DNA of 64,000 nucleotides from Octopus vulgaris (lineage: Eukaryota), in NCBI GenBank assembly GCA_951406725.2, contig OX597816.1, forward strand, positions 67,270,001 to 67,334,000. The letters are read 5' to 3'. This document shows, in pieces, positions 35,469-62,771 of the stretch (its first letter is position 1; every line of letters starts with the position of its first letter). A model generated the notes under the pieces. That model had not been told where the DNA came from, did not search any database, and saw nothing but the letters and a program-made list of their open reading frames with translations. A program made the translations under genes and the position numbers.

Positions 35469-35649
35469 GTAAAGCAGACAATTCTGTATCTTTTATTCTT
35501 TTAATGGTTTCAGCCATTTGACTGTGGCCATGGTCGGGGGTACTGTTTTCTTATGCATCTTAAAGTGGATGTTTTGTTGGAACACCAAATAGTGTGTTAC
35601 TTACCCTGAGAGGATCTCTATGGATACATGTTGCATAAAAGCACACATT

Positions 35650-36161: not shown

Positions 36162-38509
36162 TATTTATATCATTGGCAGATGAGAATTCTCTGCTATGGT
36201 TGCCAGTTGGATGTAAAAATTGCCCTTTGGTATTGATACTGCTTCTGTTCTTAATAATTATTTTTGGATGAGCCTGCTGGCTATTTGCAACATCAGTGTC
36301 AGAAATGGCACTAAAATTCTATATATTGTTGGCAGTGAGATTTGTCTGGTATGTGGCTACAAGATGTCTGCCGTTGAAGGAACCGAGTAGGTCAAAATTA
36401 CGTGATTTGGCAATTTTGGTGCCTGTTGCAGACGATTCTCATCTGCCAATGACATAAATATGTGTGCTTTTATGCATTATGTGTCGGTATGAGAGGTTCT
36501 GTCGAAGTAAATACCTCAGCGTTTGCTGTTGTAACAAAGCACTCTCACTGGATATAAAGATTGCCTTTTGATATTAATACCATTTCTGTTGCTAATAATT
36601 ATATATATATATAAAAATTAGAAAAAAAAACACCTTTTATCAATTCAAAATGAACAATTAAATTACACCATCTAGAAAACTATATATAATAGAAATATTA
36701 AAATTAAAATAACAGTAAATTGCAATTTACTTAATCATCGGTATATTATTGTTATTTTGATTTTAATATTTCTATTATATGTAATTTTGTAGATGGTGTA
36801 ATTTAATTGTTCATTTTGAATTGATAAAAGGTGGTTTTTTCTAATTTTTATATATATATATATATATATATTATATTTTGTGAAATTTGATTTAGTATTT
36901 CTAAATTGAATTTTTCCCTGTAAGTTAAGAATAATATTCCCTCAAATAATAATAATAATAATTATTATTATTATATACATATATATGCACACAACACACA
37001 TACAACCATTATCTTCCATGCTGACATGGGCTGGACTAATAATAGATACTGGCTGGGCACATGAAAAATTCACAGAAAATATAAAAAATGTAAGCATTTG
37101 TAAATTGTGTGCTGGTGCCATGAGAAATGTTTCTATATTGTGACAGTTACAGAATATAGAAAGAATTGTAAAACCGATAACTATATAATCCAACCAAAAT
37201 ATCTCAGTTACGCAAACGTGAACAGAATTGCTATTTCACCTTAAAATACATTGTACGTATTCAAAGAACCTTCTTGGTTTAGTGGTACGGAATGTTTTTC
37301 TGATATTCTTTTATTCTTTTACTTGTTTAAGTTATTTGACGGTGGCCATGCTGGAGCACTGCTGTTTAGTTGAAGAAATTGACCTCCGGACTTATTCCCT
37401 GTAAGCCTGGGGCTTATTCTATCAATCTCTTCTGCTGAACAGCGACTATAAAGTCAAAGTCAGTGATAGATTCATTGTACAAGTTTTTCAGTTGGTGTCA
37501 GTGTCAGTTATGTGATACATACGAGTTTGAGTTACCGTCAAGGTATACGTTTCAAAGTCATTGCCTTGCGGAGCTATCACCGATAGCATGATAGATGAGC
37601 CAATATTAGCAAAAACAAACCCCAGGACTTGTTTTTTTTATGTTTGATACTTATTGTTTTGGTCATTTTTGTCAAAATGTTTAGTTGCAGGGGACACCAA
37701 TTGTCAGGCATTGGTGCAGGGGCAAGCACAAATGCAAAGACACACACACACATAATAGGCTTTCAAACAGTCTCTGTCTACCAAATTCGCTCACAAGGCT
37801 TTGGTCAGCCCTGGTAGAAGATACTTACCTAAGAGGCTGTGCCATGGGATTGAACTCAGAACCACATGGTTGCAGGACAAGCTTCTTAACCACACAGTTT
37901 ATCTGCACCTTGCCATGTCTTAAGAAGGGTAAAATGAGAAACAAAAACTAGGAGCTTCTCTATGGTTGCCTGATTTGCTAAAAGTAACAGATAAATCTCA
38001 CTTAATTTGTATCCTACTGTTATTTAAAAGGAAAGATACGTTAGATAATGTCTTTCTAAATATGTTCTTGTCTGAATTAAAGACAGGAGGGATATGATGG
38101 GAATGCTTTTGACCAGAGGTCTATTCAATTAGGGCTAAGCAACTAGAACTGAAGAAATTACTGTATTTTCTGGCTTACAAATCAAATTTTGGTCTACAAA
38201 ATTTGTAGAGAAAAAAGGTACGTCAACTTATACACAAAGATGTTTTGGAAGGACCAAAAAGTTTATGTGAGAGCAGCAAGATTTTGAAAGATATGATGAT
38301 GTTTGAATGTTTACATCGCATACTACATTGACCTGTATCTTGAAAAATACAGTAGTGTTGGCCTGTATCTATGATGTTGTGTTTGTATTAAAAAGGTTAT
38401 TGTTTCTGATTGTCTAATTCTTACTTGCTTTCCTACTATTTAGGTAATATTTGTTTAATTTTAACATTTAACTTCTATTCACCTTTATAAAATGCAATCC
38501 ATTTTTCAG

Positions 38510-38590
38510 CTTAAAGCAGACCATGAGTTGGCTTTGACTAAGAAAGATTCAATTATTGAGGACTTGAAGCTGAAAATCTCTTACATTGAG
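38510..38590 (+). CDS. ICE1: ICE1-like exon 6 (81 nt; LKADHELALTKKDSIIEDLKLKISYIE)
   Basis: atttttcAG acceptor; GAG|GTAAGT donor; phase 0 to 0. Confidence 0.82.
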
Positions 38591-41441
38591 GTAAGTTTCT
38601 AATTGACTGAAAAAACAGTGAATTTATTGATGTTTTTTGTTATTCTTTTATGTTTATTTGTCTGAAACAACATTAGTTTGCTGTTGTTTAGTTGTAATGA
38701 GATATTAAGTCCAGCTGTAGCCTCTGTGTCATATTTTTAGGCAACATACATGACTTTATCTTGAGTTTATTTTGTTGGAAACAAATGTCATTGTTCTTGT
38801 TGGGAAACTGGAAAGAAAAAGCCCATCATGCAAGCAGTGTCTCTTGTTTCCACTCTTCTGTGATAACATCTGGTCATGGAGAAAAGTTACTTTGCTTGGA
38901 AATGGCAAGCTGGCAGAAACGTTAGCACGCCGGGCGAAATGCGTAGCCGTATATCGTCTGTCGTTACGTTCTGAGTTCAAATTCCGCCAAGGTCGACTTT
39001 GCCTTTCATCCTTCCGGGGTCGATAAATTAAGTACCAGTTACGCACTGGGGTCGATGTAAACGACTTAATCCGTTTGTCTGTCCTTGTTTGTCCCCTCTG
39101 TGTTTAGCCCCTTGTGGGTAGTAAAGAAATAGGTGGGGTTAGTAACAGGAAGGACACTGGGCCATAGAAAAGTTGCCTCAACAAATTCTATTTGACCCAT
39201 GCAAGCATGGAAGGCTGTATGTTAAAACAATGATGGTCTCATTAAAAAGGAAGGGCACATGAAATAATTAATGCAGTATTAAATGCCCTGAGTTTGAATA
39301 AAAGACTGGATGGTTATGAATGGAATGGTTATTCAATCAGTGTTGCCCTAAAGTTAAACAATGTTCGGAACCTAAGGAAATTAGTGACGGTCTGTATTGG
39401 CAAAAAAGTATTTGTTAATAAAAGATGTAAGGTGGTGAGCTGGCAGAAACGTTAGCATGCTGGACGAAATGCTTATTGGTCTCTTGTTTCCACTCTTCTG
39501 TGAAAACATCTGGTCATGGAGAAAAGTTACTTTGCTTGGAAATGGCGAGCTGGCAGAAACGTTAGCACGCTGGGTGAAATGCGTAGCCGTATTTCATCTG
39601 TCTCTACGTTCTGAATTCAAATTCCGCCGAGGTTGACTTTGCCTTTCATCCTTTTGGGGTCGATAAACTAAGTACCAGATACGAACTGGGGTCGATGTAA
39701 TCGACTTAATCCCTTTGTCTGTCCTTGTTTGCCCCCTCTATGTTTAGTCCCTTGTAGGCAATAAAAAAGCAAAAAAGATGTATTGGTTGAAATGTTACAG
39801 TTAACCTCTCTCATTGTTGTTCCTATCTCTGCTTACTTCATTGTTTAGTAGTTAACTGTAGGAATGGTAGTGTAATAACAGGCAACAAACTGGCAGTCTT
39901 TTTAGACCATTGGAGAAAATGCCTTGCACTATCTGTTCTGACTCTCTGCTCTGTGAGTTCAAATCCCACTGAGGGTAACTTTGTCTTTCATCCTTTTGCA
40001 GTCAGTAAAAATTGACAGTAATGGGATATCAACTCTGAACTTATAAGAGGGTAACCCATTACCTCAAAGTATTTAAATCATTGCTCTACCAATTCTGTTG
40101 ACCGTAAAAAAGTACAATTGAATATTCTCATCATTATCATCATCATTATTTTATGTCCACTTTTCTATGCCTGCATGGGTCAGATGCAATTTGTTGAGGC
40201 AGATTTTCTATGGCCAGATGCCCTTCCTGTTGCCAAGCTTGTTTTCAATCAAGGTAATAATCATTTAGTCTATCATCAATGGACATAGTTATGATTCTTT
40301 TATTTGCAACATGTCAAGAAGTTCTAAAGTGCTTTCACAGTTGACTGCAAACATACAACACTGATCATATTGATGGATAGGCTGTTGTTTTGTTTAAAGT
40401 CGGTGAACATGTATTGACAGAATTGCCAATTTTACCTGTTTTTTTTTCATTCGGTATAGACTTACCTTGGGTCATAGACTTAATCTATTGCCTAATTGAA
40501 CACCACCATAAGGTGCTTGAGTGTCTTTAACAGTGTTTACTCTGATGCAAACATTTGGGTCAGTTCTCTTGTTTAAGGATAACTTTCCATCTTCTCATGA
40601 CTCTCAGAGACTCTAATAAAAATAAAGGGTCATAATTGTAGCCCTTTCCTCCCTATGTGGTAAAAAAAATGAATGTAAGATAGTAAAGCAGTAAAAGAAT
40701 GTTATCTCATATTTGTTTCAGTCATTGGACTGTGGCCATGCTGTGGCACCACCTTGAAGGGACCAGTCAAACAAATTCATCTTAGTACTTGGTGTTTAGT
40801 TTGGTACATATTTTAACTTTTACTGAGCTGCTAAGTTACAAGGATATAAACAAACCAAGATTGTCAAGTGGTGGTGGGAGACAAAACAAACACAAGGATA
40901 CATACATATAAATATATACCAAATTCACTTACAGGGCATTGGTTGTTCTGGGGCTGTAGTAGAAGACACTTGCCCATGGTACTGGTGGTGGGACTGAACC
41001 TGAAACCATATGGTTGCAAAGCGAGTTTCTTAACCATACAGCCATGCCAGGAAAAATTTTAATGGCTTAGTCCAAAAAGGAATTTCAGCATTCATGACCT
41101 TTTTCAGGGGCTCCAAGACTGATGTGAGAAAGGAAGAGGTCATCTTCGGGTTTGAAATCTGGCTTGAATGCTTGCAACAAAATGTACTTTTATAAAGGTG
41201 ACCATGGCTCAGATCAAATCCACCCCTGATAATAGAAACAACTTTCCAGTAGGCTTCCACACTGTTTCCATTTACCAAATTTCACTCACAAGGCATTGGT
41301 TAATCTGAGGTGATGGTTATAGACACTTGCACATCACTCCACACCAGTATTGAAACTGAAAAGTGAACATTTGCTAAGTAAATTTCTTAACCCCAACGTT
41401 ATGCCTAATTTATAACCTGACTTTTTATTTTTCTACTTCAG

Positions 41442-41551
41442 AGTGATAATAAGATCTTCCGTGAGTCATCTGAAGCCTATCTTGCTGAAAAGAGCAAACT
41501 AAAGGAGTTGGTCTCACAGAAGGAGCTTGCTGAGAAAAAATATTCATTAAA
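41442..41551 (+). CDS. ICE1: ICE1-like exon 7 (110 nt; SDNKIFRESSEAYLAEKSKLKELVSQKELAEKKYSL-N)
   Basis: tttttctacttcAG acceptor; AA|GTTAGT donor; phase 0 to 2; K/E/L-rich. Confidence 0.8.
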
Positions 41552-42318
41552 GTTAGTTGAAGTTTTTATTGTGCATTTATTCATATTTCTGTGAATTGTA
41601 TCAGGTGAAGTCGTTTATTGTTCTTTGCTTCTGATGACATAACTTCGGTCATACTCTCTCTCTCTCTCTCACACACACCTCTACCACCACCAAGTAGATA
41701 CATCTTAATCACTCTTATTGTTCGAACTACAGTAACCATATATCAACCACTAAGCCAACAAGGGAGCCTCTACACAGTTACTCAGCCTTCAAGAAACAGC
41801 AATCAAATCTCCCTCATATCACATCATCTTAGAAAAAAAAAGGAAGACCATTGGATAATGTGTTCTTTGATACACTAAACCTGAAAAAAAAAAGGAAAAA
41901 CAACTGGGTGGCTATGGTTGGAATTTATATTTTGATCATAGGTTAACTCATCATTATCATCACCATTGTCTTTTTAATGTCCATTTTCCCATGCTTACTG
42001 GATGAGAAGGAATGTTTTGAGTTAGATTTTTCTATGGCCAGATTCCCTTTCTGTTGCTAGCCATTACATATTTCGAAGCAACATTTGAGGAAGATTTGGT
42101 TGCAGTTTCTAGTGTATCATGTTACCCTGTATATGCTTCCTTGGTGGCTCAGAACTGTTTTATAATGGACATCTGGTGTAAAACTGTAAAGAATTGGGAT
42201 TCAGAATGACAGGATATTCAATAAAATAAATGTTTTGATATTACGGATTAAAAATATATTGTTGTTCTGTATGTTCTATTGCTGATCATAATAAAAATAA
42301 TTGCGATTTCTGTTGCAG

Positions 42319-42356
42319 CATTGAGAAGAAAGACAAGCGGATTAAAGTGTTAACAC
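42319..42356 (+). CDS. ICE1: ICE1-like exon 8 (38 nt; IEKKDKRIKVLT-Q)
   Basis: tttctgttgcAG acceptor; AC|GTGAGT donor; phase 2 to 1. Confidence 0.8.
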
Positions 42357-42539
42357 GTGAGTTTATAATATTTTAATATTCCTTTTTGTTTTCCTTTTCT
42401 TTTTTATTATATGCTAGTGCTATCAGTTTTGAATTTTAACCCTTACAGAACTGGAATTGTCAATAAGTAATTTTTCTAAAGTACACTGAGAGACAGTAGT
42501 TCTGATTGTCATGCCATTTTCTATCCTTATATAATGCTA

Positions 42540-42935
42540 GGTAGCCATCTACTTTGTCTCCAACAATTCGGTGCGACACCAGTGCAGAATCACCTCCCTT
42601 AGACAAGTCATCCTAACAAGACGTCTGCGTTGGCTGGGTCATGCCTTCCATCGTCAACCAGGGTAATTCATCTACAAAGCAATTGCCCCAGCTCCCCTTC
42701 AGGATTGGCAAAAGTGATGTGGTGGACAACGAAAAACCTGGCTGATGACAGTCAAGGCTGATCTGGAACCCAACCTAGGCCCCCATATCTATGGCGTTTG
42801 CCGCTGGAATAGGGAGTGGTTGGAGATCACGCGATCGTTAGCCTCGTCTGGTCGGCATTTGTGAGAGATGCAGCATTGAGGATGAATGAAGCCAGCTCAA
42901 CCCACCCCGGATGAATGCTGTCCCAAGTCAAGTCA
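42540..42935 (+). mobile_element. Degenerate LINE 3' fragment (RTE-like)
   Basis: RRLRWLGHAF...GGQRKTWLMTVKADLE with stops; caagtcaagtc tail. Confidence 0.6.
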
Positions 42936-44685
42936 TGTATCTTCTGTCCAGCAGGAAACCTTTTTCTGTCTATCATATTTTCACCTCCCAACAACACCAG
43001 GCATAAACCTGCCTCCTCCTCAGTGGAATAGTCTCTATTCTCTTAACATGGCAGCCTCACTTGTACAAGTAGCACAAAAATGTATCCAGAACACTCTGTA
43101 AAGTAGTTGGCATTAATTGGAGCATACATTGAAACTTGGCACATTCTTTTATTTCGGAACCTATCAAACCATCCAACCCATACCAACATGGATGGATGTT
43201 GGCATGGGTTGGATGCTGCTGGTGATGACAAACCTTCAGTTTTAAATATAAATTTTTGCGCCTTTTTATGAGACCACAGTGACATGCTTGAACACCAATA
43301 AGCATAATTAAACAGCTAAACTGGTCAATGTTTAATCAGCATCCATTTACAAAAGACTTTCCACATCATAGAAAGAAAGAAATTATGATAATTATCTGTA
43401 AAGATAATTATTAATTAGTGTGAAGATAATTATTAATTAGTGTTATAGAGAAGTACAAATATACTGTTAATGTGGATATGAAATGTGAAAATATTAGTGA
43501 GTAAACTTCTCTTCGTGTGTGTTTGTGTGTGATCCTCATCATTTAATGTTTGTTTTTCATGCTTGCTTGGGTTGGGTGGTTTGACAGGATCTGAAAACAC
43601 AGGGCCACGCCAAGTTCCAATGTCATCTTTGGTATGGATTCTACTGCTGGATGCCCTTCCTAAAGCCAACACACTTTGCATAGTGTACAGGGTGTTTTTT
43701 TTCCATGTCACTGATACTATTAAGATTGCCAAGTGACTAGCAAGACAAGAAGAAAGAACAGGCAGAATGAAAAAGGAAAAAAAGCCCGCTTGACTAAATG
43801 GGGTGTAGGATGTATTTGAGGAGATATGATGGTTCAATACCAGATGTTTGTCATACACACACACACACACACACACACACATAACATGGCCTTGCTTGGT
43901 TGGGTCTATACGTGTTACTTTGAAATCATAATTCCATAAAATTTGTTTATGGGGAGAAAAATATTGAGAAATATCAATAGATGTGTGAGTGAGAAAGAAA
44001 CGAGGAGGGAGGTTTTGGGATTTAGCAATTTCTTTTTAAACCGAAAATGTTTCTCTCAAATGCTTAGTGAAAAAAGAAGAAAAAATGGCCAAAATCACAT
44101 TGGACTGAGGTGGTGAGGGGTTGGCAGGGTGAAAAAAATTTTTTTCCGAAAAGATGCCTTCCATGATTCTGAAGACTTTGATGGAAAACAATGGAAAAAA
44201 ATCCGTCAAAATTGAGAAATTCCAACTTATGTGGACTGTCTGATCTGAAACATCCATTTTCCAGAAACTCCTCCCCATTGCCCCCTTCTAAAAATTTTGC
44301 TTACAAATTTCTTTATAACCATAATCTACACTGTTTGAAAGGTATTTGTATAAAATTTCATTAAAAAATACCTATTTTCCAGAATGTCATGAGGGGACAA
44401 ATGTCAAGTCTTGTGAATTTTCCAAAATTCCTCTCCCCAACCCCCTCAGAAAATTTTTCCAACAAATCTTTACACACACCCAATCTACAGGAAAAAAGCA
44501 ATTATTTGGTGAAAGTTTTGTTAAAAAGTATCCATTTTTCTGGAAGTTATGAAGCAACAAAGTAGGTGGGGTATTAAACTATAGTTATGACTTTTTTCAA
44601 TAAAAGTTAACGTTAATGGATTAACATTAACTTCCATTATATTTTCAAAGAATTAACGGATTAACAAAGTTAACTTTTTGATTAA

Positions 44686-44906
44686 CCCTTTCGTTACCAA
44701 CCTGGCTGAAACTGCCTCTAGCTCAGTAGTACAAATGTCTTATTTGCATAAGTTTTGAATTAAAATCTTCCACCAAACCTTAGTCACAATTTATGTTCCT
44801 AACACTAGCTTAATAATAACTGAGTTATTTTACTAAATTCTTTGTTATGTTTAAAATAATTGAAAGAAACACAGAGCATCTCAAAGTAAATACGGTAACG
44901 AATGGG
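44686..44906. mobile_element. piggyBac-type MITE. Inverted copy near 53343-53570; relatives near 45920-46138 and 58380-58843
   Basis: TTAA|CCCTTTCGTTACC...GGTAACGAATGGG|TTAA. Confidence 0.8.
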
Positions 44907-45466
44907 TTAATGGTATCCACCTCTGTATCTATGTATGTGCATATTTATCTGCCATTTCCTTCAGTATAACTACTTTGTCATTTATGCTTCTCGTCCTTCT
45001 CATGTCTTGATGATTCTGTCTCTCTTACTCTGTGTGTGTGTGTAGCATTTCTTTACTCCTTTGATTTATCCCTCTTTAATTCTCTCTCCATATGATGTAA
45101 AGTATAATGGGAGAAATCAGCCAACCCACATTTATGTTGGTTATGATATCTGTGTGTGTGTGTTTGTGTTACCCATACAGGTGAGTGAAGTGAAATTACC
45201 CGTATGAGTAACACCTCAAATAAAACTGCTTAGGATTGTCAACCTTCAGATTTGAACGTGTTGCAATTTATTTAATATAAATCATCTGAATGCATGTTAC
45301 TATTATATCAAAGGACACTGGGACACTTAACTGACAGAAACACATGTTGGAGTGGAATATGAAGAAAATACTTCAATAAGTAAATTTGGAAGATGTATTA
45401 TTCTCCATTCTTCATTATGATACCTTAATTATATATACACACACACACACACACATATATATCACA

Positions 45467-45768
45467 ATGGCTCAGTGGTTAGGGCAGTGGACTTGTGGTT
45501 GTAAGATCTCAGTTTTGATTCTCAGACCGGGCCTTGTGAGTGTTTATTGAGTGAAAACACTTAAAGCTCCACGAGGCTCCGGCAGGGGGTGGTGGCGATC
45601 CCTGCTGTGCTCTTTCGCCACAACTTTCTTTCAATCTTTCTTCTGTTGGCCTGCTCGCTTAGCCAGCAGGGTGGCGTCATTTGAAGGCTAAAACAATGTG
45701 AAGTGCATTGTGACCAGCGATGTGTAGCAACATCTGATAGCCTGGTCAGTCACAGTGATCACGGTAAC
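45467..45768 (+). mobile_element. tRNA-derived SINE, same head as 51625-51928 but a different tail
   Basis: tggctcagtggttagggcagtggac...ttgagtgaaaacac...aaagctccacgaggctc is shared; sequence diverges after tctttcttc. Confidence 0.7.
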
Positions 45769-46455
45769 ATATATATGCATTCAATCATATTTGAGTTGTG
45801 TTGTGCATGTTTGTTCAAGTGTCTATGTTGATACTGCTTGTAAAACAATGCTCTATGTTCATGTCCTTTGTAAATTAGCAGTTTGAAAAAAGATTGATTA
45901 AAATAAGAGCCAGACTTGACCCATTAGCATTTAAACTGGCCATATCCAGCCAAGGTATTCTACCTATTTAATGTTCAGACTGACCAGATCTTGCCTCTCA
46001 CACCTACCCTACTATGTCATTCTAAAAATAAGCATTCACATATCGAAATCACAAGGATATGAGATAATGTGTGATTAATTCAAAACATTGTGAATAAATA
46101 AGCATTACATTTGACAGAGTAATCTGAATGCTAAAGGGTTCCAAATGATCAACTAAAATCCTTCAAAGCTTTGCCTCAGGAAGACCAAAGTGTTATAACT
46201 GAAACATGTAAATGAGGAAAAGAGAATACAAGAAAATAAAGCTTGATAAATTAAAAGAAAGTAAATTTATGAAAATGAAGATAAATCCTGTATTTACATT
46301 AACCTTCTTAATATCAACAAATCCTCTTTTGAGAATTTATTTTCTGTAACTTTCAAATATTGTTTTTTTTTTTTCTTTCTATGAATGCCATTGTCCTAAC
46401 AATTTAGTAATTAGTGTTTTTCCCCCTCCATGTCTTTCTATTTGTCTCAGGGCAT

Positions 46456-46956
46456 TCAAATATTTTCATTTAAATCCGTGGGTGCTTGTTGATATTTCCT
46501 TCTATAGGACCTGATAAATCTAACAATATAACAAGTAAAAATTATAAGCAATAAAGAACAATTTATACCGACAATGATTAAACCTTCTTTAAAATAGTCA
46601 TATTTGATGTAAATGACCACATTAACCGTGGTATTCATCTTAGTTTCCACCTGCATGCATGTGTAGGAACCAGAATCCTGAACAGTAGCATTTCTTATGA
46701 ATAATGTGTTTGAGATTTGCTCAATATGATTGCCGTCATATTCATTGACCTTGGTACCATTTGGTAAAAGCCAGGTAATGTTTCCTTTGTGTGGGAGGCT
46801 GCATTCGTATTTTAAAGATTTCCCTTGTTCTTGAGGATGAGGAAATGGGTCTATTTTTAGGTCCTGTGAATGAGTTTCAGTGGCTTCACTTGCCTTGAAG
46901 ACAATGGTAATGATGACAATACATAAGACGATCAGTGGTCTTGAATCTGTAGACAT
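46456..46956 (-). CDS. Single-Ig-domain type I membrane protein, 166 aa, nested antisense in ICE1-like intron 8
   Basis: Signal peptide (LIVLCIVIITIVFKASEA); I-set hallmarks YEC...ITW...TLFIRNA...DSGSYTC; four N-glycosylation sequons (NIT, NGT, NAT, NTT); hydrophobic segment GLIIVGINCSLLLIIFTCYIV followed by basic RFIRSYRRK. Acceptor tatttttcAG 5 nt before the ATG; AATAAA on minus at 46336-46341. Confidence 0.9.
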   Translation of the reverse strand: MSTDSRPLIVLCIVIITIVFKASEATETHSQDLKIDPFPHPQEQGKSLKYECSLPHKGNITWLLPNGTKVNEYDGNHIEQISNTLFIRNATVQDSGSYTCMQVETKMNTTVNVVIYIKYDYFKEGLIIVGINCSLLLIIFTCYIVRFIRSYRRKYQQAPTDLNENI

Positions 46957-49305
46957 TATTCCTGAAAAATATATCGTACAAGAATTTAACAAATAAGGTT
47001 TTACTAACAGTTTGATATGTGTGTGTGTGTGTATGTATCATAGATATATATATGTATCATTATATTATATAATAATTTACATGTAATTAGGCATATATAT
47101 CATCATTATAGTTTTATGTCCATCTTCCATGGGTGGGATGGGTTCACAAGAGCCAGCCAGCCAGAAGCCTGCACGAGACTTCTGTGACTGTTTTGGCAGG
47201 ATTTTTACAGCTGGATGTCCTTCCTAACACCAACATCATCATCATCATCATCATCATCAAAATGGACTTAGTGCTTTTTACGTGCCACAAGCACAGGCGA
47301 GGTCAGTTTTGGTAAGGTTTTTACAGCTGGATGCCCTTCTGAGCACCAATCACTTTATAGTGTGGACTAGGTGCTTTTTAAGTGGTACCTGCACTGACAG
47401 GGTCACCAAGTACTTGCAGGACAAAAAAATCGCTTTTGAGAGGGAAAGGGGCATTGGAGAAGGTGATCTTTTGTCAGATGATGAAAGGTTAGAGTGAGAC
47501 AGAGAGACAGAAACATGTGTCTTGCTGCAGAGGAAGTACAAGATTACTGGCTGGTGAGAGAGAGAGAGAGAGATCAGGAATGAAGACAGAAACAGGTGTG
47601 CTACCGCAAATGAAATACATGGTTATCCAACCTGAGGGAAGTCAGGAGAAAGAGAGAGTGGGAGACAGCAGGATAAAGATGGTGGCAAAATGCTGGGCAT
47701 ACTCACAAGAGATGGGGGATCAGAATATAAATGGAATGGCTGAGTAAAGGAAGAGAAAGATATAGATGGTGGCAAGTGCCAGGGCATACCCTTGAGATTC
47801 AATTGCCATAATATAAGTGGCAGGATATTGTGAAAGAAGTGTGATTAAAGAGTGTGGAGTGGGGTATATATATATATATACGAGCAAAACACCCCCCCTC
47901 CAATGGACGAGGCTGATGTACTTGTGCGTACAAATGCACGTTCCCATGGCTTTATTGATCACATTCTTATCTGGAATCGATTTTTGTAATTTTTTCAAGA
48001 CTTATACTCACCCTGATACCTTTGGTATCTACATATCAAATTTGAGCGCAATCGGATGGAGGATGCCTGAGATCCTGGAAGACACACACACAGACAGACA
48101 GAATGGATTTTATATAAGATATATATGTGTCGGTGGCACATAAAAAACACCTTCCGAGCGTGGCCGTCTGCCAGCCTCGTCTGGCACCTGTGTCGGTGGC
48201 ACATAAAAAACACCATCCGAGCGTGGCCGTCTGCCAGCCTCGTCTGGCACCTGTGTCGGTGGCACATAAAATCACCCACTACACTCTCGGAGTGGTTGGC
48301 GTTAGGAAGGGCATCCAGCTGTAGAAACACTGCCAGATCTGACTGGCCTGGTGTAGCCTTCGGGCTTGCCATACCCCAGTTGAACCGTCCAACCCATGCT
48401 AGCATGGAAAGTGGACGTTAAACGATGATGATGATGATATATATATATATTATATCCTGACTCTCCATTGTTTATGACAACAAGTGTTCCAGTTGATCTG
48501 ATCAATGGAACAGCCTACTTGTGAAATTAAGATGTAAATGCCTGAGAACTCCACAGACACACGTCCCCTTAACGTAGTTCTCAGGAAGATTCAGCATGAC
48601 AAGGAGTATGACTAGGCTGGCCCTTTGAATTACAGGAACATTTTTACTTTTTACCAGCTGAGAGGACTGGAGGAACGTGAAATAAAGTTTTTGCTCAAAT
48701 GTACAGCATGCTGCCAGGAATTGAACTCCTGACCTTCTGAATACCCTAACTACTAAGCAATGCACCTTCACTATATCCTACATCCAATTATATAATTATC
48801 TATAGGAGAGTATTGTAGTTCGCTGGAAGCATTGTGTATTGTTTGTGAAATATAACATGTCTTGAATGGCACAACAATGCAGAGTGGACTATAATAACTG
48901 TTATAATTTAATTATTAATAGTCTGATATAATAATCATCATCATCATCGTTTAACGTCCACTTTCCATGCTGGCATGGGTTGGACGATTTGACTGAGGTC
49001 TCGCGAACCAGATGGCTGCACCAGACTCCAATCTGATTGGGCAGAGTTTCTACAGCTAGAGGCCCTTCCTAATGCCAATCACTCCGAGAGTGTAGTGAGT
49101 GCTTTTATGTGCCACTGACAAGAAGGCCAGTTAGGCGGTACTGGCAGCGGCCACACTCAAATGGTGCTTTTTATGTGCCACCTGCACACGAGCCAATCCT
49201 GTGGCACTGGCAATTTTGGAATATAAAAATTCCTTCTTCAAATATTGCTAGGAATTGATCGAGTCACTGCTGTAATTGTTTTTTTTCTTTCTCTTTTATA
49301 ATACA

Positions 49306-49674
49306 CTAGCACTAGCGTTGCTGGGTCATAGTGCTAGTGCATGCATATACAGCTGCGTGCGTGCGCACATACACGCGAGTACTGTCCAAATCTCTGACCA
49401 ATCACATATGCTGGCATTCATCTAGCTGGCATTCAATTGGCGTATCAAGTTTCGGGTAATTTGATTGGGTTTTGGATAGAAATTTCACAAAAAAGTCACT
49501 TCTATTGTTTTTTTAATGGCTTTGCAGGGTGATTGGGGAAATGTAAATATTTGCATGACCACCCTTGGACGGTTTTGAATGACCATAGAAAGTGCGAGCC
49601 CTCTAACTAAAAAATTGTGGATTTGTATAAAGGACACACACACACAGACATTTTGCTGTTTACATATAGAGAGA
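49306..49674 (+). mobile_element. Possible non-autonomous Helitron/Helentron-like element; similar end structure near 47880-48120
   Basis: Starts ACTAG with a short hairpin; ends (CA)n-gaca...tatagagagat, a pattern typical of such elements. No coding evidence. Confidence 0.35.
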
Positions 49675-49838
49675 TGAGCATGTTCCAGAAATGAACTGAC
49701 ATGCATCCAGCTGAAGCTAAATAATATATTGATTGCTAATTTCCCGCCTGCTATTAATTTGGGGCCCTAGTCTGTCCATGAGGATAGCTTCTAAAATGAA
49801 AATGCAAATTTGTATTGTAAATTATATTTATCAATTCC

Positions 49839-49870
<32 letters not shown>

Positions 49871-50991
49871 ATCAATCAATTATCTGCATGACTAGGTAAT
49901 TAAGTTGGTAATCACTCATTGTAGGAACTCATTTGTTGTCCAATAGTGATTTCTAACGTGTATTGATCACAAACTTTGGAGAAGGGTAGGACCACTAAGA
50001 TTCCTTCACCCTCATATTTAGCTACTTGTTATTTCATTGACCCAGTGTGCTGGTGGCACGTAAAAAGCACCATCCATATGTGGCCAATGCCAGCGCCACC
50101 TTGACTGGCTTCCGTGTCAGTGGCACGTAAAAACCACCAACTGATCATGGCCATTGCCAGCCTTCCCTGGCACCTGTGCCAGTGGCACATAAAAAGCATC
50201 ATCTGTACATGGTCGATGCCAGCACCACCTTGACTGGCTTCTGTGCCGGTGGCACGTAAAAAGCACCAACCGATTGTGACCATTGCCAGCCTTCCCTGGC
50301 ACCTGTGCCGGTGGCACGCAAAAAGCATCCACTGTACTCACGGAGTGGTTGGCGTTAGGAAGGGCATCCAGCTGTAGAAACAATGCCAGATCAGACTGGA
50401 GCCTGGTGCAGCCTTCTGGCTTTCCAGACCCCGGTTGAACCGTCCAACCTATGCTAGCATGAAAAAACGGACGTTAAACGATCATGATGATGATGAATAA
50501 AAGAAAGGGAAAATCAAGTTTGATGGGATTTGAACTCAGGAAGTGAAATGGCTGAACCAATTATCACATATTATTTTCTCCATTGCTTTATCCCTTCTTC
50601 CATCAAGCATCTAATAGTAGCAAACATACTGTGTGACTTTTTAAGAAGGTTTAGTGTAGAGGTTATACTAATCCAGTTATGTTGGCCTATGACAGGTATT
50701 TGACTATAATTAGTCATTATAGCTATAATTTATTAGAGTAGGTAAATTCTGGGAAGATAAAGAAAGAAAACTAATCTTGTTTATCATTCAGCTTTATCTA
50801 GTTATTTAATTATTTATTTATTTTTCATCACAGCTTATTAGATTAGTTACTAATGTTATTTAACCCCAGGTCACCCCTGATCCAGTAGACCTATGAACAT
50901 TCCACTATTTTCCTTTATATATATATATATATATATATATTATGGAGATGTACTCGCATAGCAAGTAATTTGATCTGAGATCGTGTGCTGT

Positions 50992-51027
<36 letters not shown>

Positions 51028-51624
51028 GACTGGAGTCTGGTGCAGCCTTCCAGCTTGCCAACCCTGGTCAAACCATCCAACCCATGCCAGTATGGACAGT
51101 GGACACTAAATGAAGATGATGACTGTTTTATCCAATATTTTTTTTTTATAAAATGGTCGAGTGTGCTTTAAAGGTTAAGAAATCACATTGTGGCTCCTTC
51201 ATTGGCTCACTAATAGAGTAATTTAGTAGAGAATTAATTAAAAGAAATTGTTGTAATTATATTATTGATAGCTGTGCATTGATGATTTAAAATGATGAAC
51301 TTCTAATAAAACTTTTATCAGTGAACAAGAGAGCACCACTCTTAAAACTTCTCTCTTATGGCATGGAAGACTATGATAAACAGAAGAACACTGAGGACAG
51401 AGCCATGGTGCCCCTCTCTTCTTCAGTTTTGAACTTGTCACTGTATTCATTGGTAACTCTCGCCTTGTTGAGAGCATGTCTTTATATGGTTTGAATGGCC
51501 TTCTGAAGCCAAGCCATTCATCTACTACTTACCTTAACACCACCCCCTACAGAACATGGAACTACACACACACATACACACATGCACATAAATAATACTT
51601 AAACTATGATCATTTATTTTTATT

Positions 51625-51928
51625 TATGCACCCTTTTCAAGCCTAGCCAGGCTCATGGGCCCAGATTCCCGGTTTCTATGGTGTATGTGTTCCCCCAGCT
51701 GGACGGGATGCCAGTCCATCGCAGCATCACTCAAGAAACGGGAAGAAAGAGTGAGAGAAAGTTGGGGCGAAAGAGTACAACAGGGGTCGCCTCCCCCCCC
51801 TGCCAGAGCCTCGTGGAGCTTTAGGTGTTTTCGCTCAATAAATATACACAACGCCCGGTCTGGGAATCAAAACCGCGATCCTCCGACTGCGAGTCCGCTG
51901 CCCTAACCACTGGGCCATTGTACCTCCA
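51625..51928 (-). mobile_element. tRNA-derived SINE (tRNA-Arg-like head; may correspond to the octopus OR family)
   Basis: A-box TGGCCCAGTGG; GGACTCGC anticodon-like arm; degenerate B-box GGTTTTGATTCC; head shared with 45467, tail shared with 32575. Confidence 0.7.
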
Positions 51929-52689
51929 ATCTATGATCATTAGTCTGACAAACGATATTTTGTTGGATTAATGATTATGGATTAAATATCTTATTCATTC
52001 TTAGACTTATTCTATGTTTATTCTAAGTCACTGGAGATAATTTGTTTTGAACTTGTTACCCCCTGGAATGTGTGTTTGTGTGTGTGTGTTTGTTTCAAGA
52101 TACATCTCACAGATACTCTGGAATGGGATCATATGAGGTTTGGAGTCTTTCACTGTCAGACCCCTTTGTCCAGTTGATCCAATCATCCTATCATTCAGGT
52201 AGCAACAAGCCTTGGGCATTCTTCTTTATTCACTATTAAGTAGGACTTCTCTCAGCAGCTTCAGTGATGGAACACACTGCTGTTTTGTCTTTGCTGCACC
52301 AATATATTTCAAATTTAAATTATATACTTGCATGAATAGTCGAATGGTGTGAATGGTGTTTTTTTTTTTTTTGACACTGTTTGAATCTCAATCACTTGTT
52401 GATAAACCAGTGCTCTTATTTAGTTGCTATGTAATCCCTTTGGCATTTAGCTCAACACATTTTGTCCAACCGAATATTGTTTCTAAATGTAGGCACAAGG
52501 TCAGCAATTTCAGGGGAAGGGATAACACTGACCCAAGTGTTCAACTGGTATTTTATTTTATCAACTCCAAAAGGATGAATGGCAATGTCAACCCTGGTGG
52601 TATTTGAATTCAGAATGTTAGGTCAGAAGAGATGCCACTAAGCATTTCTTCCAGTGCAGTAACAATTTTACCAGCTTGCTACCTTATAG

Positions 52690-53090
52690 GCATAGGAGTG
52701 GCTGTGTGGTAAGTACCTTGCTTACCAACCACATTGTTCTGGGTTCATTCCCACTGCGTGGCACCTTGGGCAAGTGTCTTCTACTATAATCTCGGGCCGA
52801 CCAAAGCCTTGTGAGTGGATTTGGTAGATGGAAACTGAAAGAAGCCCGTCGTATATATGTATATATATATATATATGTATGTTTGTGTGTCTGTGTTTGT
52901 TCCCCCACCGTTGCTTGACAACCAATGGTGGTGTGTTTACATCCCCGTAACTTAGCAGTTTGGCAAAAGCGACCGATAGAATAAGTACTAGGCTTACAAA
53001 GAATAATTCCTGGGGTCAGTTTGCTCAACTAAAGGTGGTGCTCCAGCATGGCCACAGTCAAATGACTGAAAAAACTAAAAGAGTAAAAGA
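52690..53090 (+). mobile_element. SINE family A, full-length copy on the plus strand
   Basis: ggagtggctgtgtggtaag...gggttcattcccactgcgtggcaccttgggcaagtg...gactgaaa...aaagagtaaaaga. Confidence 0.85.
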
Positions 53091-54559
53091 ATTATGTCCA
53101 ACCAAATATTGAACTAAACTAAAGACTAAATAAACTAGATAAACTAAAAGCTAGCTTTAAGAACTAGGGCTTTTAACTTTTTCAATACTGTAATATCCAC
53201 AGTATAAGTCACCTTACTGAGATATTCTGATTTTAACTTAGTCAATATATAAAGCCTTTATATTTTCCCACTTTTGTATAATCCAGTCACTTTGGTTTAA
53301 AGTGGACTACAACACAATTTTGTGCTTTTGGTGAAAAGATGTTTAACATTTTCATTACTGTATTTATTTTGAGATATTCTGTGTTTCTTTCAATTACGTT
53401 AAATATAACAAAGAATTTAGTAAAATAACTTAGCTATCATTCAGCTAGTGTTAGTAACATAAATTGCGGCTAAAGTTTGGTGGAAGATTTGAATTCAAAA
53501 CTTATGAAAACAAAACATTTGTACTCAAAGCCAGAGCTGGTTTCAGCCGAGTTGGTAACGAAAGGGTTAATGTTAAATTAAAATTGATATTATGGGAGAA
53601 TTAACTCCTAAAATATTTGTGTAATGTCAAATACTTTCTTAAAGTTGAAAGTTAAAACCCCAGTTAGTAGCAACATGTTATTTAATATTATCTGTTTGAT
53701 ACACATTACAAGACAGTCTTTTGTATTTTGATATAAATATAATTCTCTACTCTGAAATTTGACTAAAGTTAACTACAGTAGTGAAAAGGTTAATGTCAGT
53801 TGTAAGAAAGAGTGAAGTTGATATTTGCTAGTAGCAATTTATCCTGAACATTGCCGCCATTAATGCTTTATGACTGTTTTTCAATACTGATGTGGGTTGA
53901 ATAGGTCTATTTTTTAGCACAGTATCTCACCACTTTTCAAGGTCCTTCATTATTTGATGCACAAAATAGCAGAGAAAAAGACAATCATTAATCTTGTGTA
54001 TATCTTACTCTGGTCAATATTACAGATGTTGAGCAGTAATTCTGATCCTGTCAAACAAAGGTTTTTTTAACTCAAACACAAGGGATCTTATTTTATAATA
54101 AGATATATTAATAAGAGTGTATATATATGTTTATCAATTTGTGTTGCTGGATTCCTGATGTGAAATGAGTTAATGGACATGAGTTAAAGTAAGAACAGTA
54201 ATAAACAAATAAAAAACAAATATATAGTGTATTTATTTGGTAAAATTTTTTTTTTTTAAATGACATCCCAAAATACAAGTGTATATATAAATATATATAT
54301 ATATATATAGCATGGAAAGCGGACGTTAAATGATGATGATATATATAAATATATATATAAATGTAAAAATTCTATAATTATGAGTATAATTATAATTATG
54401 ATTCAGCAAAAATTTGCTTCACCACATACCGAAATTTAGAAATAGCAGTTAAAACTAACTATTTCACTACCATAAGACAATCTTCCAGACAGCAATACTC
54501 GACAACTCACACAAGTAAAGAGATATTACTGACATTATATATATACATACACACTTGTG

Positions 54560-54595
<36 letters not shown>

Positions 54596-54808
54596 CGTGC
54601 ATGGGCTTTGTAAAGTTTCTATCTACCAAATTGACTGTGGCCATGCTGGAGCACTGCCTTTAGTCAAGCAAATCGACCCTTGGATTTATTCTTTGTAAGC
54701 CTAGTACTTATTCTATCGGTCTCTTTTGCCAAACTGCTAAGTTACGGGGATATAAACACACCAGCATTGGTTGTCCAGCGATGTTGGGGGGATAAACACA
54801 GACACACA

Positions 54809-54857
<49 letters not shown>

Positions 54858-55107
54858 GACGGGCTTCTTTCAGTTTCTGTCTACCAAATCCACTCACAAG
54901 GCTTTGGTTGGCCCGAGGTTATAGTAGAAGACACTTGCTCAAGGTGCCATGCAGTGGGACTGAGCCTGGAACCATGTGGTTGGTAAGCAATTACTTGCCA
55001 CACAGCCACTCCTACACCAAAACTCTGTACAGACAGATTTTTTTTACATGCAGTACCTTCCTATGCATAGAGCGATGGCTAACCATTAACAAACACACAC
55101 ACACACA

Positions 55108-55154
<47 letters not shown>

Positions 55155-55307
55155 GTACATATATAGCATTGAAAACATATATAATATATATATTATAGTA
55201 GTTGGTTATAACAGAAATAATTGAGATTTTTTAAAATATAAATACATTTGTGCAGATGAAAAGAATTGCCTGATAGAAAAAAAAGCATGCATCACCTACA
55301 GCTTATA

Positions 55308-55359
<52 letters not shown>

Positions 55360-56194
55360 AAATGATATTGTGTATCAACATATCACGGTTCCCAACTTTT
55401 GAATTCCAATAGCAAGGTAAAAGTCAAGCTAAGGCTACAGCAGAAGACACTTGTGTGAAATGCCATGCAATGAAATTGAACCTGGAACCATGCAGGTACA
55501 AAACAAACTTCTTAATCAATGACAGACTTTCTGTCTAGTCACTGAAACTGCTAGAAATAGCACCAAATTTCCATTAAGTTACTGTATCAAAAGAAAATGT
55601 GACAGACTGGATATAGTGTTGTCCAAGGGGTACTATTGTTGAAATTAAATTGGGATGGTCATAACTGGAATGCCCATGGTCATAGGTGTGCTTGATAAGG
55701 GCTGGCTTGATGGTGAGCAGCAACAATAACAACAACAACAAATAACCAATGTGTGACATATTAGAATGGAGACTTCACAACTGACTGACTTACCAATGGC
55801 TTTCCTCCTTCTTACTCACTCATTCAACTGGTATTTAACTTTGATGCAAGGTGGTCTACTCTTTACATAATTTTCATGGATTTGTGTGTGTGTGTGTCGG
55901 TGAGAGTGTGCAAGGTGGTGTTGTGCTTATTCTCTTTCCCTCACACCCTGCTGTCAGCTGACTAAACAGCGTAAACACAAATAATATATATAATTGTCTT
56001 CATTCTAGCTGACTTTATCTAGCAACTGTCATTTACATAATGAACTTAACTATTGTGTGATATAATATGTTTACCTTCATACACACACACATTTGTGTGT
56101 GTGTGTGTGTTTTTACTGATTGTCTGTGCCTTTGTAATTGTCTATGCAATGTGTGTGTGTGTATGTATATATATATATATATATATGCATATCT

Positions 56195-56232
<38 letters not shown>

Positions 56233-59200
56233 GCATATCTCTGTGCTTGTGTGTACATGCATAAATTACATTCAGTCTTATACACACATACAATATATAT
56301 ATCAGCAAACTGAAAAAAAATCAGACATACTCACAAACTGATTTAAAATTTGCTGCAATATTATTTTTAAAAATTAATTAAAAACCCAAATGTTAATTAA
56401 TGTCTTGAGCTGGTCTTTGAGAAAATAGATGTCAGTAAGATGAATATGCATAAGAAGATAAGAGAAGAAAATGTTTGTTTTCTAAGACTATAAATAGCTA
56501 GTTAGTGCAGGGCATAATTAATTGGGAAGTGATAGGTCACGGGGTATCTATTTTCACATTTATTGAATAAAAATAGTTCTGTTTTGTTGTTTAGCCCTAT
56601 GTCTATCTTAATTGTGAAGATGTATGATCAAAGATGTTCCAACATTGACTATTCTATCTTCATTCAGTCACAATGTGTCCAGGTTTATGTTACTTGATGC
56701 GGCACCAAGAAAACTTTTATTTTTGAATTAAGGGAAATCTTATCATTGTTGGCGAAAGGGCACAAATTTAGGGAGAAGGTTTAGTTGCTTAACCTGAATC
56801 CAGTACATGATTAGTACTCTATCTTTATCAATGCTGGAAGGACGAAAGACAAAGTTAATCCCTGCAGGATTTGAACTCAGGAACATATAAACAGTGAAAC
56901 AAATACTGTAAGGCATTTGGTTTGACGCTCCAACAATTCTACTAATCAACTACCTTTAATAATCTGTATGTAGTAATTCAAATATGGAGAACCTTGCCTC
57001 TCACAATATAGAAGCATTTCTCATGGCACCAGCAGACAAAATGGAAAAGGTGTTGCCCCAGATGATAGTGTGGCAGATGCACTGGAACAGCCACTCTGAG
57101 TTGTGGACAACAATCTCTGCCCTGATAGTGGTAAGCAGGGATATGGTCCAGGGACCAATGATGCTGGAGGTCTCAATTGCCACAATTTCAACCATAAACC
57201 TGTCAGAGAGTGACCGATACCTTGACGTTTTTTTTCTTCTTTGCCTAATGAGCAACAGAGCCTGGGCTGGTAACTGACACATCAAGTTAATGCTAAGGTA
57301 CAAGGCCAGAAACTTCTAGGTGAGTTAATCAATTAAGTTGACCCTGGTCCTTGACTAATCTTTATTGACTCCACACAGATGATTTTGGAAGTTTTATAAT
57401 GATTGGAGAAGTATGGGGTATTGATTGTAGAAGTTCTGTAAAGGCATAGGGACATGGGATTTTGATTGTGGTAGTTCTATAATAGCTGGAAAAAATTGAA
57501 TATGTTGTATGTGTCATGCTAAACTTACATGAAAGACAGAGCATAAGTGAAGTGAGAGATTAAATATATCAATAGAGGTGATTGCTCTTCTGTGACCATG
57601 AACTGTGAATAGAAGAGGATTACTGCTTGAAAAAGTGCTGTATACTGACATTGAAAGTATTTCATAGTGATACTTTAGTCATGGTGACTTAAAATTCAAA
57701 CTGAATGAGGTATTTGCTGTACTGCACAGTTTTATCAAATCCCTGCCAGTATGAAAAAATGATGTTGTAACAATAATAATAAGGATGGTTTATAAGTTCA
57801 CAAATTCTTAATTTAACAAATTGTCAATACATACCCAGACATTCGTATACTTTATTTTTATTCACTCCTTACCTCACCACTACCACACTATTGCCTCCCC
57901 TCTAATCAGGCTTTTTTTTTATCTTGTAATTGTAAAAGAATAAGAAGGAGATTTAAAGCTGTTTTCCCTCAAAATGTATAAAAATATATTTGAAATTTGA
58001 GTCTGCTGTATATATAATTTGAGATATTTTTTCTTCCCCCACACATCCTGTGATTTTTTTTTCTAAGCTTTCATTGTCTAGAGTCAGTTCTCTTAAAACG
58101 AAACTTAGAATAATGAGATTCATATATCAGGGAAGGAGCTGAACAGATGTCAGAAATTACAGGACTTATCTCTTTGACCTCATGTATCAGCAAGGTTCCA
58201 GAAAGAATCTGATAACTTACTTAGAGAAAGATAAAAATTCATGTTTTTTGTTTTAATTATGACTTAGACGAAAAAGGACAATACTTATAACCTTTTTTTC
58301 AGAGACTCTTAGATTTGTGGAAAGAAAAGAGGAAACTATCCTGAAGTGGGACACTTGGTTTGAATACCTGCAGCAAAGTTGACATGTTACTGTATTTCTA
58401 TTGAAACACACTGCCTTCATTTCAATTAATTTAAAAAAATAAGAAGAATTTAGTAAAAAAAATTTAGTCATTTTTAAGCTGGTGTTTGGAACAGAAATCA
58501 ACATGAAATTTTGACTGAAGTTTTTAATTTAGAGCATTTTAAAACATGGAGTTTGTTTCATAGAACCATGGGTGGGTTAGTATCAAAAGAGGAAGGTGGT
58601 GAGCTGGCAGAATCATTAGCACGCCGGGCAAAATGCTTAGTGGTATTTCGTCTGCCATTACATTCTGAGTTCATATTCTGCCGAGGTCGACTTTGCCTTT
58701 CATCTTTTCGGGGGTCGATAAATTGAGTACCAGTTACGCACTGAGGTCAATGCATTTGACTTAATCCGTTTGTATGTCCTTGTTTGTCCCCTCTGTGTTT
58801 AGCCCCTTGTGGGTAGTAAAGAAATATGTATCAAAAGAGTTAAAAGGCATGTGGTAATGTCAGGCCAGGTGACAGATTAAATCTACCCCACAAAGACAGG
58901 AACAGTTTCTCTGATGTGCTTTCACACAGTTTCTATTTGCTCAAAGTGTCACACACTGGAAATAAAACTAGAACCATGTGGAAGAAAAGTGAACGTCTTA
59001 ACCACATAGCTTTATCTTCTGAGTGAGAATAATCATCACTGTGTGTGTGTGTGTGTGTCCATCCAGTTAGAAGTAATCTGAGTAATTAAGTTACTAATCT
59101 TCTTTCTGGGTCATATAAACACTCCATATTTCAGATAGTTTAGCAGTTGTGGAGATAAATCTTCTCACTGTTTAGGATTTTGCTTGCTGCTTTCCAAAGA

Positions 59201-59701
59201 ATTCTCATAAGTTTGTCTGTAACGTCCATGCTTATTTTCACACTTTCTTCGTTTTTTTTTTTTACCTTCTCCATGAACATTGTTTTGCATTTTCTTGTAT
59301 AGAGGATTCTTGATAAATTCTAAGATCTTCTGTTGCTTTGAACAATAGTAGGTCATGTCTAGCCCTTGCTATATTTAAAAAAAAATTATTTTTTAAAAAT
59401 TAATAAAGATGGGGAATGCTATATGATGAAGTAGGTAGCTAGAAGGAAAACTCTGATGCAACACCTGCGACTTCGTTTACGTGTTATAATGTAGAATAGT
59501 TATTTTTAATAAGCAAATGCATGTGAAGTGAGATTGACACACTCAGCTGAAAAACCTTGGAAGTGGTCCTCCACCATAGCCTCAGTCCAGATTACTGAAA
59601 CAAATAAAAGATTGAGAAAATGCTGATGAAATTTGTATCGTTAAATTCTTGCTAACTAGTTTTATCCTTTTCTTTCTTTCTTTCTTTATTTATTTCAACA
59701 G

Positions 59702-59784
59702 AAAATTTTGAAGGCAATAAACAAATGTTGTTAGAACTGAGAGAAAAATTCAACTCACTGCAAAAAGAAATGCACAAGCTAAAG
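59702..59784 (+). CDS. ICE1: ICE1-like exon 9 (83 nt; NFEGNKQMLLELREKFNSLQKEMHKLK)
   Basis: Long polypyrimidine tract with upstream gctaac; caacAG acceptor; AAG|GTATGT donor; phase 1 matches exon 8 across 17.3 kb. Extra symmetric exons in between cannot be excluded. Confidence 0.8.
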
Positions 59785-62731: not shown

Positions 62732-62771
62732 GAACAAAATAAAAGTTTCCCTCCAGTCTTCCAAGATACTG
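62732..62771 (+). CDS. ICE1: ICE1-like exon 10 (40 nt; EQNKSFPPVFQDT-A)
   Basis: ttcttctttacAG acceptor; TG|GTATGT donor; phase 0 to 1. Confidence 0.78.

Follow-up and report, generated by a model that had tools for sequence, protein, structure and literature searches.

Basigin, embigin and neuroplastin, which combine immunoglobulin (Ig) domains with a membrane helix, assist monocarboxylate transporters and plasma-membrane Ca2+ pumps as auxiliary subunits, and members of the basigin family have in common a characteristic transmembrane sequence in which a Glu is centrally placed. Little is known about the auxiliary subunits of channels, pumps and transporters except in vertebrates, insects and nematodes; for cephalopods, a classic model in neurophysiology, they are missing. 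With respect to gene arrangement, IGSF6 (DORA) reportedly lies inside an intron of another gene, the function of which is unknown (Bates et al. 2000). Here we describe a gene that invites comparison with these systems. It is located in a 64,000-nucleotide stretch of Octopus vulgaris DNA (assembly GCA_951406725.2, contig OX597816.1, positions 67,270,001 to 67,334,000 of the forward strand), which was analysed as a whole and is referred to as the window; positions are those of the window unless a chromosome is named. The coding sequence occupies 46456..46956 on the minus strand, within an intron of an ICE1-like host gene on the plus strand. The nested locus is a real, spliced minus-strand gene that is expressed, and it encodes a type I membrane protein that is glycosylated and has a single Ig domain. 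In the protein family, conservation is strongest in the juxtamembrane and transmembrane stretch rather than in the Ig domain. We tentatively suggest, at somewhat less than an even chance, that the protein is a membrane-embedded auxiliary subunit of another membrane protein, on which it would dock via one conserved face of its transmembrane helix.

Structure and transcription of the nested gene

The open reading frame (ORF) list of the 64-kb window contains an intact minus-strand ORF of 166 codons followed by TGA at 46456..46956. The original prediction, made from the sequence alone, had described such an ORF in a single coding exon, and the complete coding sequence does lie in one exon, covered end to end by one transcript contig in each of four sequencing runs. 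By sequence comparison a chance ORF can be dismissed, since the product has full-length orthologues of 166 residues with 89% and 83% identity, as well as a wider family of relatives. At its 5' side, the minus strand reads atttttcag/gaataATG, so that the exon starts 5 nt before the ATG. This region (46957..46970) consists of five bases of 5' untranslated region (UTR; 46961-46957), the acceptor AG (46963-46962) and a pyrimidine run (46970-46964). An (AC)n-type simple repeat lies immediately upstream of the coding exon, at 47005-47053.

Public sequencing runs provided the transcript evidence. There were 24 listed runs, 20 of them with all or part of the stretch, from nine studies. None of the runs is recorded as RNA, and 14 small ones were guessed to be RNA. 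The contigs of four runs, from four studies, were placed on 45000-47004; the runs are taken as RNA because of their sizes, 30-99 million letters against a 2.8-Gb genome. In all four runs, a single contig of 811-910 nt spans the exon from between 46276 and 46304 up to 46962, and is then followed by extra letters that match nowhere on 45000-47004. The contig of run X1 (910 nt) covers 46287-46962 and carries 234 extra letters beyond 46962, while those of runs X5 (900 nt), X6 (811 nt) and X12 (862 nt) cover 46288-46962, 46304-46962 and 46276-46962, with 225, 152 and 175 extra letters, respectively. The unique flanks, 46206-46272 and 46963-47004, have no contig cover in these four runs.

Given that the contigs stop matching at the acceptor and carry 152-234 letters from elsewhere, one or more upstream non-coding exons are spliced to the coding exon. 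A non-coding first exon had been anticipated from the acceptor 5 nt before the ATG, and this acceptor is the one used in the contigs of all four runs. The plus-strand bases at the contig break are CT, which is no splice donor, and thus only splicing of the minus strand fits. At the other end of the exon, AATAAA is found at 46341-46336 on the minus strand, 114 nt past the stop codon (the expected distance had been about 115 nt). It is part of a 3' UTR, 46276..46455, that was delimited from the sequence together with the contig ends at 46304, 46288, 46287 and 46276; these ends do not allow the exact 3' end of the transcript to be fixed.

The X1, X5 and X6 contigs are identical to the window across the exon. 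The X12 contig, from a second organism, shows two differences in 687 bases, at 46734 and 46746. With the frame read by hand, they correspond to G75S and N71D, both within the Ig domain, and residue 71 also varies in two other octopus orthologues (D, H); two differences are too few to interpret.

Just downstream of the nested gene, at 45469-45803 and 45871-46205, the summed contig depth in each of the four runs ranges from thousands to tens of thousands. Many short contigs with 95-99% identity are placed there, and the two segments behave like interspersed repeats of high abundance with transcription at some place in the genome.

The encoded protein

The protein begins with a predicted signal peptide (residues 1-25, 46882..46956) with a hydrophobic core at residues 8-20, to which a hydropathy peak at residues 10-18 and a model helix at residues 6-19 point; its cleavage site is putative. 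The single Ig domain comprises residues 39-118 (46603..46842), as delineated by Pfam, AlphaFold2 and Foldseek. Its core is formed by C52, W62, D94, G96, Y98 and C100, with the motif DSGSYTC ending at C100. Four sequons lie in the ectodomain, N59 (NIT), N66 (NGT), N89 (NAT) and N108 (NTT), while a fifth, N132 (NCS), is located inside the membrane helix. The juxtamembrane and transmembrane stretch (residues 119-146, 46519..46602) was delimited from family and orthologue conservation, and its hydrophobic helix holds C133 and C142. A short basic cytoplasmic tail (residues 147-166, 46459..46518) follows, which contains Y151 and Y155 and no immunoreceptor tyrosine-based activation motif (ITAM). The signal peptide, the one Ig domain with its C-W-DSGxYxC pattern, the four sequons and the transmembrane segment with two Cys residues are all present in the sequence as originally predicted. 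Of the predicted tail, the two tyrosines stand (in YRRK and YQQA), whereas its length had been overestimated at about 23 residues: the basic tail sequence, RFIRSYRRKYQQAPTDLNENI, has 21.

In Pfam searches, the window protein matched Ig_3 with 33.5 bits (E 6.1e-8, cutoff 30), ig with 26.7 bits (cutoff 21.8) and I-set with 23.7 bits (cutoff 23.7). The V-set model reached 21 bits against a cutoff of 26, and the CD3 Ig models 16.9 bits against a cutoff of 27.3. An AlphaFold2 model based on a 43-row family alignment has a mean predicted local distance difference test score (pLDDT) of 89.7, and consists of a seven-strand sandwich (block pLDDT 91-98) that leads directly into one helix, residues 121-157. 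The top Foldseek match of this model is the first Ig domain of NCAM (5aea_B, E 1.4e-7, target-normalised TM-score 0.74). The closest solved folds are of the I-set/C2 type, namely NCAM Ig1, LINGO-1, NGL, AMIGO, FGFR2 Ig-C2 and Robo, which are membrane-proximal or neural domains. The Cys-Trp-Cys core, the D-x-G-x-Y-x-C motif, the profile scores above cutoff and the predicted beta-sandwich place the protein in the immunoglobulin superfamily.

Family members and the octopus paralogue

A word-indexed search returned two close relatives, each of 166 residues: A0A0L8I3M4 of Octopus bimaculoides (89% identity) and a Logan-derived protein (83%). An exhaustive search of representative sequences yielded 370 proteins at E<=0.001, and most of the best of these are giant multi-Ig proteins matched domain by domain. 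Among the best 150 of the 370, the match of 41 proteins, 145-211 residues long, was continuous and spanned almost all of the query. The family alignment of 43 rows consists of these 41 relatives, the query and P0001.

The members can be aligned end to end, with a common layout of signal peptide, one Ig domain, a stretch with the consensus LxVYxMPxYFxEGMIIxGINxxLxVIFxxC and a short basic tail. C52, W62, C100, Y121 and L135 are invariant in the 43 rows, and L85, D94, G96, Y98, N132 and C142 are conserved in at least 90% of them. From the consensus, the window protein keeps Y116, Y121, F122, E124, G125, I131, N132, L135 and C142. Thirty clusters were looked up, of which six are named and five have an organism: O. 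bimaculoides (twice), the gastropod Littorina saxatilis, the annelid Owenia fusiformis and the nemertean Tubulanus polymorphus. The terms in the member names are "Ig-like domain-containing", "uncharacterized", "hypothetical" and "unnamed protein product", and all 43 rows match generic Ig models of Pfam only. Judging from these sequences, the proteins constitute an unnamed family common to molluscs, annelids and nemerteans. The earlier description of the protein as uncharacterised and outside any named family thus agrees with our results, whereas the suggested restriction to molluscs does not hold, as members occur in O. fusiformis and T. polymorphus. The family was not found in print in a literature search of limited coverage.

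The octopus genome contains at least two copies. The other copy, on the same chromosome at 137.97 Mb (C3:137971616-137972050, plus strand; locus L002, 1447-1959), was found by genome search and encodes a protein of 170 residues with 38% identity to the window protein. A search with a central family member, P0064, recovered the same two octopus loci, and the paralogue is more divergent from the family consensus (E 4e-7, versus 2.8e-16 for the window copy). The coding sequence of the paralogue is likewise confined to a single exon, and 5 nt separate its ATG from the acceptor. In the 60-kb surroundings of the paralogue, where only repeats and reverse-transcriptase-like ORFs were seen, no host gene could be made out. 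A maximum-likelihood tree joins the two octopus genes as sisters and groups the window protein with its orthologues and the paralogue inside the family (support 100/97), implying a duplication within the cephalopod lineage.

The intronless coding sequence had led the original prediction to consider retroposition. For this gene, retroposition is not supported: the transcript has a 5' UTR intron, the position of its acceptor is shared with the paralogue, and the genomic sequence shows no A-run in 46276-46304, the region of the contig ends (no search for target-site duplications was made). The family as a whole could still have arisen by an ancient retroposition.

Distribution of constraint

Conservation in the family was calculated on 41 rows, after the two near-identical orthologues had been dropped. 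The mean top-residue frequency amounts to 0.59 over residues 119-146, whereas the Ig domain has 0.45 and the tail 0.29. The juxtamembrane and transmembrane stretch is thus the best-conserved part of the family, above the Ig domain. A comparison of three octopus orthologues revealed variation at 32 of the 118 N-terminal positions, but at 2 of the 48 that follow (Fisher p = 5e-4).

Within the helix, residues 121-146, the conserved face is composed of Y121, E124, G125, I128, N132, L135, I139 (F in the family) and C142. The helical conservation moment is 0.395, against 0.172 +/- 0.089 in shuffles, and was reached by 1.2% of 5000 shuffles. Of the ectodomain sequons, the one near N66 is present in 28 and the one near N108 in 32 of the 41 members. 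On the other hand, Y151 and Y155 are not conserved in the family; given this, and the low top-residue frequency of the tail, a tyrosine-based tail signal is unlikely.

Proposed role and alternative explanations

If the protein is an auxiliary subunit, its glycosylated Ig domain would sit right on the membrane beside the loops of a partner, with about five residues between the last strand and the helix. The mid-membrane Asn and the small and aromatic residues around it would provide a helix-helix packing surface, and the partner of this face would be a multi-pass transporter or channel, or a second copy of the same protein. C142, near the cytoplasmic end of the helix, may be palmitoylated. The basic tail, which is short and variable, would act only as an anchor, with no part in signalling, and the nesting in the host intron would be positional rather than functional. 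A small family in which the helix is better conserved than the ectodomain, spread over three phyla, represents a concrete candidate for an auxiliary subunit. In language-model feature space, two divergent members have embigin, basigin, neuroplastin and TMIGD1 as their closest clusters (0.93-0.96), a proximity to be treated as a lead only.

Several observations weigh against this assignment. The proximity in feature space may reflect merely the common layout of an Ig domain, a helix and a short tail. No partner is known or predicted, and a homodimerising adhesion molecule would show a conserved helix face equally. When the C-terminal 55 residues were searched against PDB chains at E up to 10, there was one match only, with E 9.3. 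A profile of the juxtamembrane stretch, helix and tail built from 19 rows gave 15 matches to PDB chains, the best with E 0.12; no basigin-family chain was among them, and sodium channel beta-2 had E 1.2. By these searches, the octopus helix shows no sequence similarity to those of basigin, embigin, neuroplastin or the sodium channel beta subunits. The octopus proteins themselves differ from the family consensus at several positions of the motif, with K118 instead of M, Y119 instead of P, L126 instead of M and I139 instead of F. That the RNA is of the minus strand follows from the splice signal and the ORF rather than from stranded reads.

In a more specific form, the proposal is that the protein is an independently arisen lophotrochozoan counterpart of basigin or of the sodium channel beta subunits, whose helix face (Y-E-G-N-L-F-C) docks on a multi-pass transporter, pump or ion channel. 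We regard this as possible, albeit somewhat unlikely. If true, it would name a missing auxiliary subunit in the physiology of cephalopods and other spiralians.

The conserved helix face would also be expected if it only served dimerisation in cis, while the Ig domain of a cell-adhesion or recognition molecule bound an Ig protein, either of its own kind or a different one, located on an adjacent cell or in the matrix. The Ig domain is indeed nearest to neural adhesion molecules in both sequence and fold (contactin, NCAM, DSCAM, Robo, LINGO and NGL), Asn residues within membrane helices are well known to drive self-association, and the positions that vary among octopus species lie in the ectodomain, as they often do in recognition surfaces. 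However, a single Ig domain about five residues from the membrane is predicted to reach only a few nanometres, which is short for bridging cells through their glycocalyces. Moreover, the family conserves its Ig domain less than its helix, and the tail lacks a conserved cytoskeletal or PDZ linkage motif. An adhesion or recognition role is, on balance, unlikely; even as an ordinary molecule of this kind, the protein would delimit and name a family that is listed only as "Ig-like domain-containing".

The layout of a single Ig domain, a helix and a short tail is also that of immune-type receptor chains that pair by their helix with a signalling adaptor, in the manner of CD79, CD3 or KIR/DAP12-type receptors. 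In the Foldseek match to 7xq8_B, which is part of the human B-cell receptor complex, the alignment extends over 136 columns and takes in the helix (E 1.8e-5, root-mean-square deviation 8.8), and Pfam CD3 Ig models gave weak matches in 12 and 13 of the 43 members. Such a role is nevertheless improbable. The tail has neither an ITAM nor an immunoreceptor tyrosine-based inhibition motif, its tyrosines (YRRK, YQQA) being unconserved. The conserved polar residue of the helix is a neutral Asn instead of the charged Lys, Arg or Asp of such pairings, the CD3 score of the window protein is far under the cutoff, and the genome contains two copies (a lower bound), as compared to the expanded families of immune receptors.

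That the protein is secondary, and the locus an antisense unit modulating its ICE1-like host or a decaying retroposed copy, is highly improbable: its antisense position inside the largest mapped intron of the host and its single-exon coding sequence would suit such a locus, but three octopus species have kept an intact frame in which hardly any of the C-terminal 48 residues vary, conservation of the family extends over three phyla, the 5' UTR intron has a position common to the paralogue, and the transcript end has no genomic A-run.

The host gene and its surroundings

None of the 141 plus-strand ORFs of at least 50 residues, from 12 kb onward, matched a Pfam family above cutoff; the host exons within the window are short, and a host domain would therefore be missed there. 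A low-complexity plus-strand ORF or exon of 1190 codons begins 2.7 kb past the window end (window-relative 66688-70257). A 600-residue piece of it matched two long octopus proteins, P0171 of O. sinensis (1972 residues, 96% identity) and P0170 of O. bimaculoides (XP_014791215, 2018 residues). Both have a C-terminal match to the Pfam domain ICE1_C (PF25817) that falls below the cutoff of 27 bits, with 25.4 bits (E 1.3e-5) for P0170 and 24.9 bits (E 2e-5) for P0171. By inspection, the coiled-coil-like N-terminal sequence and the large low-complexity central exon of the host also fit the ICE1 family.

The database names of these orthologues are "probable serine/threonine-protein kinase DDB_G0282963" and "putative uncharacterized protein DDB_G0282133". 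These DDB_G names look like low-complexity artefacts and are apparently wrong, the only domain found being the sub-threshold ICE1_C. The present analysis thus corrects a misleading name of the host gene, and also documents another nested antisense gene pair.

The host exons were mapped on the plus strand with P0171, by tblastn and local alignment. Coding exon 1, with the ATG, lies at 18986-19042, and coding exons 2 to 7 lie at about 29353-29415, 30685-30720, 32053-32118, 35403-35474, 38507-38590 and 41421-41555. The last coding exon before the nested gene is exon 8 (42317..42364), identified by local alignment to residues 156-171 of P0171 with 14 of 16 residues identical, as counted by hand. 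The first coding exon after it is exon 9 (59698..59784), which tblastn matched to residues 168-196 of P0171 (96.6% identity, E 1.5e-10). Further coding exons were mapped at about 62726-62776 and 62993-63109, followed by the large exon at 66688-70257, and additional ones extend to about 97.3 kb. Host coding exons 8 and 9 therefore flank the nested gene, which sits in coding intron 8 (42365-59697); with a length of about 17.3 kb, this is the largest host intron mapped, the second largest being 10.3 kb. This mapping bears out the predicted antisense nesting in the largest intron, intron 8, of an ICE1-like gene, with the ICE1 membership of the host at sub-threshold level. The first exon of the nested gene might lie outside host intron 8.

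Other coding-like sequences were recognised by eye on the minus strand of the window. Host intron 1 contains ORFs of 237 and 267 residues at 25919-27463 that resemble a pogo/Tigger-type DDE transposase, and a 152-residue ORF at 28450-28908 that resembles a reverse-transcriptase fragment. Further upstream, ORFs at 5721-6158 and 11431-12060 resemble the J-domain (...HPDKF...) and the C-terminal helical part, respectively, of an HscB-type iron-sulfur co-chaperone. They would belong to a further gene, on the minus strand and upstream of the ICE1-like host.

Comparison with known systems

The layout of an Ig domain, a helix and a short tail and the nesting of genes in introns are known already, and the orthologues are present in databases as hypothetical proteins. 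In its gene arrangement, the octopus locus resembles IGSF6, as in both cases a small gene for a membrane protein of the immunoglobulin superfamily lies within an intron of an unrelated host gene. IGSF6, which lies on the opposite strand to its host, is however a vertebrate V-set immune gene, and the likeness is confined to the arrangement. A functional precedent among small invertebrate membrane proteins is OIG-8 of Caenorhabditis elegans, which has one Ig domain and one helix; the comparison concerns its layout only. An unnamed nematode cluster of 278 residues was also among the language-model feature neighbours.

The signalling chains CD3 and CD79, which have an acidic residue in the helix and a tail ITAM made up of two spaced YxxL/I motifs, were considered and set aside: the octopus tail, RFIRSYRRKYQQAPTDLNENI, has no ITAM, the helix core has no acidic residue, and the CD3 models remain at 16.9 bits against 27.3. 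The vertebrate voltage-gated sodium channel beta subunits, SCN1B to SCN4B, are auxiliary to a multi-pass protein and share with the octopus protein a single Ig domain, one helix, a short tail and a similar size. They are V-set proteins, however, while the octopus protein scores 21 against a V-set cutoff of 26 and has its best fold matches in I-set/C2 domains. With this V-set score, and with a match of the helix profile to beta-2 that is not significant (E 1.2), the protein was not assigned to the beta subunits.

Basigin, embigin and neuroplastin are, like the octopus protein, type I glycoproteins with a membrane-proximal I-set-like Ig domain, a helix that is the best-conserved part and contains a polar residue, and a short tail. 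They differ in having two or three Ig domains, whereas the octopus protein has one, and in place of the central Glu of the basigin family, the octopus helix has Asn132 in its middle and a Glu at its boundary. Membership of the basigin family was rejected on the number of Ig domains and on the helix sequence, for which no basigin-family PDB chain was matched at E up to 10. By analogy, the octopus protein may work like basigin and its relatives, as a counterpart in action rather than as a member of their family.

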